A stretch of DNA of 64,000 bases, from the IMG/VR virus record IMGVR_UViG_3300008267_000023, positions 1-64,000 of that record, one strand, 5' to 3'. The DNA is from a virus. The position numbers and the translations under genes are program-made. Shown here one piece after another: positions 1,102 through 5,486 of the stretch; the stretch's first letter is position 1, and each line of letters starts with the position of its first letter. A model generated the notes under the pieces. The model was not told where the DNA came from. It searched no databases and saw nothing but the letters and a program-made list of their open reading frames with translations.

Positions 1102-1396
1102 AGATTATTTTTCTGTTATTGAAATAACCACTGGGAGAAAAATTTGTGATTGCTCTGATGAAATGGATGCTCTTATGATGGTTTCTTTCAGTCCAAAAAA
1201 CAGAACTATTACAAAAAATAAATTTATGATGGGTCAAGTTATAGATATTGAGATGCCAAAAGCATTACCTACCAATGAGATTGTAATTGATACTAGAAAA
1301 TATCAACAACATCAAGACGACTGGATTATTGAAAAGATTAATCAATTACCACAGATTAAACTGCCAGAAGGGGAAGGACTTCCAGTAATTGTATGA
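1082..1396 (+). CDS. Hypothetical protein
   Basis: 104-aa ORF, ATGA overlap with next gene. Confidence 0.65.
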   Translation: MKKYGNEDYFSVIEITTGRKICDCSDEMDALMMVSFSPKNRTITKNKFMMGQVIDIEMPKALPTNEIVIDTRKYQQHQDDWIIEKINQLPQIKLPEGEGLPVIV

Positions 1397-1614
1397 ATCA
1401 TCGTAAAAGAAGACAATCAGAGAATCAAAAGAAAAAGAGGATGTTTACTCCAGATGGATATATTAATGACCCTCAAGATGCTGTTTGTCCTCACTGCAAT
1501 AAGAAACAAAAACCTTGCTCTCATATCAATAGTTTAAGTCGTGCTTGGGCAAGAGATGCATGTTCTAAGAAAATTAAAACCAGTAAAAACAATGACAAAA
1601 CATCCTCTAATTGA
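1393..1614 (+). CDS. Small Cys-rich (CPHC) protein, paralogue A
   Basis: DGYINDP..CPHC..CS..NS..RAWARDAC motif. Confidence 0.65.
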   Translation: MNHRKRRQSENQKKKRMFTPDGYINDPQDAVCPHCNKKQKPCSHINSLSRAWARDACSKKIKTSKNNDKTSSN

Positions 1615-1756
1615 AGACGGATACGTTCAAGATCCACCAGGGGCAAAGTGTCCACATTGTGGTGAGACTGGTAAAATATGTTCTTATGTCAACAGTATAA
1701 ATCGTGCTTGGGGTAGAACTGTTTGCGAGAAAAAAATTAAAAGTATGAAAATGTAA
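1592..1756 (+). CDS. Small Cys-rich (CPHC) protein, paralogue B
   Basis: DGYVQDP..CPHC..CS..NS..RAWGRTVC motif; ATG at 1592 preferred. Confidence 0.65.
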   Translation: MTKHPLIEDGYVQDPPGAKCPHCGETGKICSYVNSINRAWGRTVCEKKIKSMKM

Positions 1757-1805
1757 TATATAATTATGTGTTAAATGTTTTTATGAATAGTAAAAACTTC
1801 CCATT

Positions 1806-4325: not shown

Positions 4326-4510
4326 AAGAAAAATTTGAAGACGTTCTTAGGAAAGAACTCAAAAAAGAATTTGAACATCAAATGAATGTTCAAGTAAATC
4401 AATCAGAATTAAAAAATATTATAAAAGAATATAAAAAAATTAAGAAGTTCCAGAAGACACCACTTTATGAAGTGATGCAAATGGATAAGAAAAGTAAAAA
4501 AGATTCTTAA
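4322..4510 (+). CDS. Hypothetical basic protein
   Basis: ATGA overlap with upstream gene. Confidence 0.6.
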   Translation: MKEKFEDVLRKELKKEFEHQMNVQVNQSELKNIIKEYKKIKKFQKTPLYEVMQMDKKSKKDS

Positions 4511-4513
4511 TTT

Positions 4514-4529
4514 TGTATCAGATTTTACA
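4514..4529. promoter_or_regulatory. NtcA-binding box
   Basis: TGTA-TCAGATTT-TACA is a perfect GTA-N8-TAC, intergenic, just upstream of the promoter. Confidence 0.7.
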
Positions 4530-4536
4530 AAAGTGC

Positions 4537-4566
4537 TTGACTATATAGAGTGAATAGGAGTAGAGT
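4537..4566 (+). promoter_or_regulatory. sigma70-like promoter
   Basis: TTGACT (4537) - 18 nt - TAGAGT (4561). Confidence 0.55.
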
Positions 4567-4576
4567 AATCTCCTAA

Positions 4577-4874
4577 CGTTCATCCTATGACTAAAGCACT
4601 TTTGCTTTTAGCATGGGTTCCACTTCTTTCTTTTACTACGCCACAACTCATAGCAACTGAACATCCAGTTACAATAAGTTGCGACGCAGCGTGGGAACTA
4701 ATGGACATCGTTAAAAACGACGATGTAGTTATTCAAAAAGTAGAAGACCGATTGCTACTAGAACTCCGAAAGGATGTTGTAAACAAGTGCTAAAAACTGA
4801 ATAGGACGGAAGTAAGCCGACTCGGAACGGATCGTTCATCGGGAAACCGACGCAAAAGCCGACTGAAGGAACGC
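4577..4874 (+). ncRNA. Glutamine riboswitch-like RNA (glnA / Downstream-peptide family), double aptamer with an ORF in the P2 loop
   Basis: Two CGTTCA and two GGAACG strands; CGGAAGTA and GAAGGAACGC E-loop signature; stems TCCTAT/ATAGGA and TCGG-GAAA-CCGA; upstream of a YRG peptide. Confidence 0.8.
4587..4793 (+). CDS. Small putatively exported two-Cys protein nested inside the riboswitch P2 loop
   Basis: 68 aa with signal-peptide-like N-terminus; ISC..A..L...V...LELxK..C pattern shared with 50700..50870. Confidence 0.7.
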   Translation: MTKALLLLAWVPLLSFTTPQLIATEHPVTISCDAAWELMDIVKNDDVVIQKVEDRLLLELRKDVVNKC

Positions 4875-4904
4875 TCTTTAGCCTCAAAATTAAGGAGAAC
4901 CCTA

Positions 4905-5063
4905 ATGTCTAAAGCCGTTTATAGAGGGTGTTCATACGACACCGATAATGCAAAAAAAGAGTATGAAACTTGGTATCTCAAAAGTCATGCTCCTGCTCAC
5001 CCACAAAATACATATCGTGGAGTAGCATATCGTCCATGCAAAAACATGGAGGTTCAAAAGTGA
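4905..5063 (+). CDS. YRG-motif peptide (DUF4278 / IF17 N-terminal-like), 52 aa
   Basis: AAGGAG RBS at 4892; MSKAVYRGCSYD...TYRGVAYRP; not in ORF track. Confidence 0.8.
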   Translation: MSKAVYRGCSYDTDNAKKEYETWYLKSHAPAHPQNTYRGVAYRPCKNMEVQK

Positions 5064-5158
5064 AAAAACTTAACTTCTTACAACTCATTAAAGATAAAAA
5101 ACAAAAAGAAGAACGTCGTCATCAAGCTCAATTGGCTCATCTAGTTGGAGCAAAGTGA
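5060..5158 (+). CDS. 32-aa basic peptide MKKLNFLQLIKDKKQKEERRHQAQLAHLVGAK
   Basis: GGAGG RBS at 5048; GTG start overlapping upstream TGA. Confidence 0.65.
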   Translation: MKKLNFLQLIKDKKQKEERRHQAQLAHLVGAK

Positions 5159-5247
5159 TGGTAGGACAAATTATCATAACTTCAACTGCTGCAATTGCTT
5201 TAACTACAATGTTATTGTCAGTATATATTCAGTGGATTTATAAATGA
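5158..5247 (+). CDS. 29-aa single-TM peptide
   Basis: TGATG coupling, GGAG RBS, hydrophobic core. Confidence 0.55.
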   Translation: MVGQIIITSTAAIALTTMLLSVYIQWIYK

Positions 5248-5253
5248 TTTTCT

Positions 5254-5281
5254 AAGGAGGGGTTGATCCCCTCCTTTTTTT
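5254..5281 (+). terminator. Intrinsic terminator closing the peptide operon
   Basis: AAGGAGGGG-TTGAT-CCCCTCCTT followed by a T run. Confidence 0.85.
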
Positions 5282-5312
5282 GTGGTAAAATCTTATTGGA
5301 GAAAATTATTTT

Positions 5313-5486
5313 ATGGATAAAGATAAACTTAAATTAATTATCCGTAACCTTGAACTATTAGTTGATTCTTTAAAGGCAGAAGTATATTCTGATACTCAAA
5401 GTTATTTGAATACGGACAAAATTAAACAAACACTTCAATACGATTACGACGAAATTTTTGAGGATGACGATGGTTATGCAGACTAA
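5313..5486 (+). CDS. Conserved hypothetical protein (57 aa, MDKDKLKLIIRNLELLVDSLKAEVYSD...)
   Basis: Read manually; GGAG upstream; acidic tail. Confidence 0.7.
   Translation: MDKDKLKLIIRNLELLVDSLKAEVYSDTQSYLNTDKIKQTLQYDYDEIFEDDDGYAD

Follow-up and report, generated by a model that had tools for sequence, protein, structure and literature searches.

A conserved small gene in the P2 loop of a predicted glnA-type glutamine aptamer of cyanophages

In a phage DNA stretch of 64,000 nucleotides (positions 1-64,000 of IMGVR_UViG_3300008267_000023, hereafter the window), positions 4577-4829 very probably constitute a genuine type 1 (glnA-type, RF01739) glutamine aptamer, as judged by sequence, with a real gene embedded in it. 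This aptamer (aptamer 1, or unit 1) precedes a second one (aptamer 2, or unit 2), and the predicted tandem pair opens a small operon of the phage that encodes an IF17-like peptide.

Layout of the locus

The features of the locus and the evidence for each are given below.

4537-4566, plus strand: predicted sigma-70-type promoter, TTGACT-18-TAGAGT; the same TTGACT...-10 arrangement is found directly 5' of CGTTCA in most related loci
4577-4581, plus strand: P1 5' strand of aptamer 1, CGTTC, from sequence and both folds; pairs with 4825-4829
4583-4588, plus strand: P2 5' strand of aptamer 1, TCCTAT, including the first two bases of the ATG (4587-4589) of the embedded open reading frame (ORF)
4587-4793, plus strand: embedded gene of 68 codons with stop TAA at 4791-4793, from dN/dS, family size and kept frame
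4595-4601, plus strand: 5' strand of a P2 extension, AGCACTT, codons 3-5; pairs with 4785-4791 (RNAalifold, 19 sequences)
4705-4726, plus strand: conserved inner hairpin within the ORF, from fold and alignment, with one compensatory change from C-G to U-A (L120)
4785-4791, plus strand: 3' strand of the P2 extension, AAGTGCT, last two codons and first base of the stop (RNAalifold)
4801-4806, plus strand: P2 3' strand of aptamer 1, ATAGGA, invariant in 40 loci found by protein
4807-4829, plus strand: core of aptamer 1, CGGAAGTAAGCC..., and P1 3' strand GAACG (4825-4829), from core conservation and short-loop orthologs
4831-4877, plus strand: aptamer 2, aligned to RF01739 over the full model (1-53) with E = 1.1e-5 and 34.6 bits, against a cut-off of 35
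4892-4897, plus strand: Shine-Dalgarno sequence AAGGAG of the downstream gene, read directly; GGAG is kept there in relatives
4905-5063, plus strand: downstream 'YRG' gene, 52 aa, IF17-like (DUF4278), from PF14105 and phrog_5049
5254-5276, plus strand: predicted intrinsic terminator closing the small operon

The predicted (unmapped) transcript start falls at about 4572-4576, just 5' of aptamer 1, which opens with CGTTCA (4577-4582) and in which A4582 is unpaired. Seven bases (4794-4800) separate the stop codon of the ORF from the P2 3' strand. ATAGGA is followed by CGGAAGTAAGCCGACTCGG and then by GAACG, and the glnA core element GGACGGAAGTAAG is located at 4804-4816, between P2 and the P1 3' strand. 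The sequence-only reading from which this work started had delineated the two 6-mers, the ORF at 4587..4793, the overlap of its ATG with P2 and a stop 7 nt before the 3' strand, all of which are exact to the base. The P2 hairpin of aptamer 2 comprises 12 nt (4839-4850). The product of the downstream gene contains two YRG motifs and matches PF14105 with 22.9 bits, below the cut-off of 25.3 bits (E = 1.1e-4), and phrog_5049 with E = 6.6e-9. DUF4278 is the domain of IF17, an inactivating factor of glutamine synthetase, and glnA aptamers are usually associated with the IF17 gene (PMC6212724). Neither a promoter nor a terminator is predicted inside the embedded ORF, and the unit is bounded by the promoter at 4537-4566 and the terminator at 5254-5276, an arrangement that points to a single transcript.

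Some further elements lie at the borders of the unit. An inverted repeat, AGGAG...CTCCT (4556-4574), spans the predicted -10 box just 5' of aptamer 1, and a palindrome is retained at this site in related loci with differing sequences (AGGGG/CCCCT, TGTGTTA/TAACACA, GGTATG/CATACC), so that by its sequence the repeat looks like a covarying hairpin or an operator. At the other end, a basic micro-ORF of 32 aa (5061-5158) begins with a GTG that overlaps the stop of the YRG gene, and a hydrophobic micro-ORF of 30 aa (5155-5247) is situated between the YRG gene and the terminator.

A probable glutamine aptamer interrupted by 212 nucleotides

The minimum-free-energy fold of 4572-4835 consists of exactly P1 and P2 (z = -2.6), and RNAalifold predicted P1, P2 and the P2 extension from 19 relatives without prior input. 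In the alignment fold P1 is formed by 19 of 19 sequences with invariant pairs, while the P2 extension shows changes from A-U to G-U and from U-A to U-G. Since P1 is invariant everywhere, its pairing partner cannot be proved by covariation. Within the window's own class neither P1 nor P2 ever varies in the 19-sequence alignment, and covariation comes from other classes.

When aptamer 1 was compared with the RF01739 covariance model, no match was obtained up to E = 10, and Rfam finds aptamer 2 only. Short-loop orthologs of unit 1 that have the window's core reach 40.1 bits (L088), 38.1 bits (L095) and 35.4 bits (L053) against a cut-off of 35 bits. L095 combines the window's TCCTAT/ATAGGA stem and core with a loop of 9 nt, and the short-loop core aligns to the whole model. 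The failure of aptamer 1 in the covariance search is thus due to the 212-nt insert, as the same stem and core pass in L095. In the Rfam scan the long-loop loci of P-SSM4 and AG-345-L05 likewise gave zero glutamine riboswitch matches. The suggestion that the long loop hides the aptamer from covariance searches is borne out by this pattern, and with L095 scoring 38.1 bits and the folds in agreement, the two 6-mers can be taken, as had been proposed, to form the P2 stem of a genuine aptamer of the glnA type. Set against the descriptors of RF01739, the window has the P1, the core and the leader position before a DUF4278/IF17-type gene, and its score lies below the gathering score of 35 bits; the P2 stem is present directly after CGTTCA and closes a loop of 212 nt compared with a few nt in described members.

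Long-loop forms from different lineages have different P2 stems, among them TCCTAT/ATAGGA, TCTTATGG/CCATAAGA, TCCGA/TCGGA and TCCAAT/ATTGGA. The mean P2 helix run of the long-loop forms is 5.30 for aptamer 1 and 6.22 for aptamer 2, compared with 4.07 and 3.99 for shuffled partners, and none of 1000 shuffles reached the observed value. Some long-loop P2 stems even extend to 11-20 bp that are formed from the first and last codons of the ORF. Absence of covariation between the flanking 6-mers had been named in advance as a ground for giving up the idea; P2 pairing is in fact kept through sequence changes across the long-loop lineages. Loci collected by the protein alone, and thus as a sample independent of the RNA pattern, lead to the same picture, with 73 of 81 flanked by both aptamer halves and a P2 of 5-7 bp.

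It is conceivable that the insertion inactivated aptamer 1, that its halves are now a leader and a spacer for the ORF and that only aptamer 2 senses glutamine. The missing Rfam match for aptamer 1 would fit such a relic, as would the cost of closing a 6-bp stem over 212 nt and a real decay of the halves in some loci. In L143, L147, L156 and L199 (about 680-950), which represent one lineage only, a deletion has removed the 3' half together with unit 2 and the YRG gene. The ORF of these loci is undamaged and followed by a terminator, and the 5' remnant of the aptamer is kept with CAGTTCA in place of the original P1 5' strand. L190 (690-1090) has lost both cores and carries two former loop ORFs side by side, the second without its DAKAD end, and L162 has a shortened aptamer core. 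This decay, however, occurs after deletion of the partner half, an argument that selection maintains each half as long as its partner exists. Furthermore, ATAGGA is invariant, and divergence of the 3' core amounts to 0.069 versus 0.256 at fourfold sites of the ORF (40 protein-found loci parsed by a stricter script), which makes the core about four times more conserved. As the ends of the ORF pair and lengthen P2, and P2 pairing persists across lineages with different stems, we regard a relic aptamer as very improbable.

The embedded ORF as a protein-coding gene

The product of the embedded ORF begins with MTKALLLLAWVPLLS. Its N-terminus is hydrophobic and signal-peptide-like, and a helical hairpin is predicted between Cys32 and Cys68, the two cysteines that had been noticed in the sequence-only reading and that are invariant in the window's class. 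Purifying selection, the absence of which would have spoken against a gene, is evident from a dN/dS of 0.32 in this class (171 pairs, 99% below 1), and a value of 0.25 was obtained for a second class of embedded proteins, the 'HW' class. The third codon position is the most variable in embedded ORFs. In the 19-sequence alignment indels are multiples of three inside the ORF and not after its stop, and the ORF is retained where the riboswitch is lost. Together with the dN/dS of the window's class, this upholds the earlier proposal of a real gene.

The insert might alternatively be a structured RNA domain with a meaningless open frame. It does fold into a rod, and synonymous changes are nearly absent from a block of about 40 nt, which contains a hairpin with one compensatory change. 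A non-coding expansion is nevertheless disfavoured and has next to no probability, in view of frames that are open in 99 of 99 diverged copies among the matches listed, dN/dS values of 0.25-0.32 with most variation at third positions, indels in threes, two invariant cysteines, the confident fold of the HW class (pLDDT 82.8) and a free-standing cellular homolog.

The block just mentioned covers 4689-4727 (about 13 codons, WELMDIVKNDDVV) and has almost no synonymous variation in the 19 sequences, in contrast to the remainder of the ORF. The inner hairpin at 4705-4726, which comprises 8 bp, resides in it. The block is still conserved in loci without the aptamer 3' half, and the constraint is thus not tied to the aptamer.

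Proteins of the window's class consist of about 66-73 aa with a hydrophobic N-terminus and the invariant Cys32...Cys68 pair around ELMDIVKN and LLLELR motifs. The family is represented by at least 254 metagenome protein clusters, all of them hypothetical, and it is narrow: a set of 1.84 billion proteins contains only 9 clusters of it at 50% identity. The window protein has no match in Pfam, PHROG or NCBIfam, a Protein Atlas search returned only its own viral cluster, and the class was not found in the 401 Cyanobiaceae genomes searched as hosts. The AlphaFold model of the window protein is weak (pLDDT 62) and features an N-terminal hydrophobic helix followed by helices 32-44 and 50-67 with a cysteine at both ends. 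The same helical hairpin is found in the HW-class model, where Cys23 and Cys59 are brought together; a comparison of this model with the PDB gave nothing significant, the best rows being generic helical hairpins with E above 2. The proteins may be disulfide-stapled or metal-bridged hairpins, possibly exported in the case of the window's class.

The HW class corresponds to phrog_6471 and the ORFs of aptamer 2 to phrog_504. These two look related by sequence, as hhalign aligns them with a probability of 78% (E = 2e-5), cysteine to cysteine. The window's class reaches only E = 0.009 and 8e-4 against the HW and aptamer-2 classes, with probabilities of 5-24%; it has the architecture in common with them, and a kinship is weakly indicated at most.

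Genes in P2 loops are widespread among related phages

When viral contigs were scanned with the 3' half of unit 1, at least 120 loci were obtained, and 103 complete related phage loci are among the matches listed. In 76 of these 103 an ORF is present in one or both P2 loops. It resides in unit 2 only in 34 cases, in both units in 26 and, as in the window, in unit 1 only in 15, and 26 loci have an ORF in neither. The P2 span is bimodal among the matches listed. In unit 1 it measures either 10-32 or 190-225 nt, while the corresponding values for unit 2 are 11-43 and 138-188 nt, and each long form of unit 1 among them shows CGTTCA followed by the complementary strand that contains the ATG. All 99 P2-loop ORFs extracted from the matches listed are open and have their ATG at +3 to +6 after CGTTCA, inside the P2 5' strand.

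There is no spacer at the start of the embedded ORFs, and their ends fall at, within or shortly beyond the P2 3' strand. In the window's class the stop lies 6-14 nt before the end of P2. HW-class ORFs in unit 1 terminate either with a TAG that is part of the P2 3' strand or with the TAA of the core, giving ...GRK, and the unit-2 ORFs all read through the aptamer core, stop at its conserved TGA and have DAKAD as the C-terminus. With their ends in or near the P2 3' strand and the core, the ORFs occupy the entire loop and have nucleotides in common with the sensor.

A survey of homologous loci for variable ORF cargo in either P2 loop had been recommended, and all four combinations of long and short loops occur. 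Backbones close to that of the window differ only in the P2 module, and L119 and L095 have identical cores with unrelated modules. P-SSM4 contains ORFs in both P2 loops that are annotated merely as hypothetical proteins PSSM4_169.2 and 169.3. One locus (L057) has three tandem aptamer units (short, long, short) with an HW-class ORF in the middle one. Other structured RNAs occur in two cases. A manA RNA (184 bits; L001, 19-204) is located just upstream of the riboswitch locus of P-SSM4, and an abiF RNA (53.8 bits) adjoins three tRNA genes in L053 (4668-5042).

Genome contigs were scanned with the aptamer-2 core only, a search to which ORF-bearing aptamers with other cores in cells are invisible, and each of its three matches is probably a phage contig contained in a MAG or SAG. 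L215, filed as a Cyanobiaceae genome, contains a short unit 1, a unit 2 with ORF and a YRG gene in an AT-rich stretch (about 1300-1760, minus strand), which could represent either a prophage-like island or a phage contig that was assigned to this genome by binning.

Homologs of the embedded proteins also exist outside riboswitches. A diverged, free-standing homolog (about 50% identity) is encoded immediately upstream of the riboswitch promoter in L129 (701-910) and L130, and its sequence and position hint at a possible route of the gene into, or out of, the P2 loop. A GC-rich Cyanobiaceae chromosome (L212, 1477-1776, with a second copy in L214) encodes free-standing HW-class homologs of 99 aa with no riboswitch around, which have the motif PYGWHMSCERF in common with the embedded HW-class protein. 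As embedded ORFs persist without the riboswitch, the coupling is not needed for the function of the protein.

These findings raise the question whether the gene is simply a passenger. The P2 loop could be a harmless insertion site in a strongly transcribed early unit, with recombination in the conserved cores exchanging modules among phages; the gene would be translated constitutively, the aptamer would refold behind the ribosomes and regulate only the IF17-like gene. The occurrence of all four loop combinations in the 103 complete loci among the matches listed (short-long 34, long-long 26, short-short 26, long-short 15) agrees with this, as do near-window backbones that differ only in the P2 module (L119 and L095), ORFs that behave as ordinary genes once the riboswitch is gone or outside of it (L129), and the free-standing cellular homolog. 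A parked gene, however, would be expected to have its own ribosome-binding site and to be placed at any position in the loop, whereas all 99 ORFs start inside the P2 5' strand, and some use nucleotides of the core as codons and stop (DAKAD and the core TGA in aptamer-2 ORFs). We therefore consider a pure passenger rather unlikely. As translation must unfold the aptamer, some interference would be unavoidable even for a passenger gene.

A possible competition between translation and glutamine sensing

Taken as a whole, we slightly favour the statement that aptamer 1 is a real aptamer, that its P2 loop has been enlarged to carry a translated two-cysteine gene and that folding and translation compete under the influence of glutamine. 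The AUG of the ORF lies in the P2 5' strand, adjoins P1 and is only about 11-14 nt away from the predicted 5' end of the transcript; a Shine-Dalgarno sequence is absent before the embedded ORF. From this anatomy, with the AUG within the P2 stem, we infer that a folded aptamer and a bound or translating ribosome are mutually exclusive. A ribosome that initiates on the embedded ORF or translates it would hold P1 and P2 open, and conversely the folded aptamer, stabilised by glutamine, would bury the embedded AUG. The 5' strands of P1 and P2 are transcribed about 220 nt ahead of their partners, so that the first ribosomes can load before the aptamer forms; thereafter aptamer folding would compete with re-initiation. 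As glutamine stabilises the fold, high glutamine should lower the level of the embedded protein. At the same time it would raise that of the IF17-like peptide, as in gifB leaders, where glnA aptamers turn translation on with glutamine (PMC6212724).

Glutamine-dependent reciprocal control of the embedded ORF and the YRG gene is proposed on the basis of this anatomy, tentatively and with somewhat less than even confidence. A two-output riboswitch in which the embedded gene is switched off as the ribosome-binding site of the IF17-like gene is released, in which each ribosome resets the sensor and which represents the common state of cyanophage glutamine riboswitches is possible and on balance doubtful. 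P1 and P2 of glnA aptamers may form with or without the ligand, so the effect of glutamine on translation of the ORF may be weak, and the invariable position of the ATG in P2 could be inherited from one ancestor instead of being selected.

Two metatranscriptome studies, of lake and aquatic samples, provide contigs that match at 99-100% within 4350-5160, and one of these contigs spans 4350-4839 and joins both halves of unit 1. These contigs stem from RNA libraries, which can contain DNA, and report presence only; the joining contig starts upstream of the predicted promoter, and the stretch of about 5161-5321 is without cover.

A further complication arises from the tandem arrangement. The four P1 strands (4577-4581, 4825-4829, 4833-4837 and 4869-4873) make up two identical pairs, making other pairings between aptamers 1 and 2 possible, and their complementarity can be read directly from the sequence. 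At the junction of both aptamers, GAACG-GAT-CGTTC (4825-4837) forms a perfect 5-bp hairpin. The outer P1 strands might thus pair with each other in a strand-swapped or nested double aptamer, and the RNA might switch between a side-by-side and a nested state with the ORF loop in the other domain. The invariance of P1 leaves covariation blind to which pairing is formed, while a single unit suffices in each case to match the Rfam model over its full length (1 to 53), unit 1 by way of its short-loop orthologs. We consider such a fold improbable; it can coexist with the competition between folding and translation that we prefer.

Implications and relation to known systems

A survey from 2017 listed just two glutamine aptamers for the genomes of cyanophages (PMC5473149). 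The literature searched, which included PMC2864571, PMC6212724, PMC5473149, PMC9964418 and PMC12379486, yielded no description of an ORF within a riboswitch aptamer; Ames and Breaker (2011) lay outside this search. Our observations point to an undercount of phage riboswitches, with search models that assume short loops and aptamers that are treated as compact non-coding domains. Most cyanophage loci in a large sample, the matches listed, have a conserved protein gene inside an aptamer helix, and hundreds of cyanophage 'hypothetical proteins' prove to be riboswitch-embedded genes. If the proposed competition is true, one RNA yields two opposite outputs and translation directly competes with ligand sensing. 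The small two-cysteine proteins, encoded beside a likely inhibitor of host glutamine synthetase, are candidate players in the takeover of host nitrogen metabolism.

The closest described relative is the gifB (IF17) leader of Synechocystis, an RF01739 member with the same P1 (CGUUC/GAACG), an adjacent P2 hairpin and the ACGGAAGUA core (PMC6212724). RF01739 members in general occupy the same 5' leader position before a DUF4278/IF17-like gene and also occur in tandem (PMC2864571). Their described loops, however, comprise a few nt, whereas the 212-nt loop in the window is a gene, with its AUG in the P2 stem. The same locus with two cores and a downstream YRG gene is present in the cyanophages S-PM2 and S-CREM1 (OP535465, annotated 'riboswitch glnA'), in which both P2 loops are short, in contrast to the gene in loop 1 of the window and the genes in both loops of P-SSM4.

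Protein genes looped out of a helix of a conserved structured RNA, which has to fold around them nonetheless, are otherwise familiar from the ORFs in peripheral loops of group I and group II introns and from the nuclease ORF enclosed in HEARO/omega-RNA. Those ORFs serve the RNA element itself, through homing, as maturase or as guide-dependent nuclease. In the case described here, by contrast, the RNA is a predicted metabolite sensor to which no link of the protein is known, and the start codon resides in the stem of the sensor. Leader-peptide attenuators and riboswitches coupled to upstream ORFs, for example the translated uORFs of riboswitch leaders in M. tuberculosis, likewise set translation of a short upstream frame against folding of a regulatory RNA. 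Those frames are placed in the expression platform and the peptides are mostly by-products, whereas the cyanophage frame is located within the aptamer itself and its product is a conserved protein.
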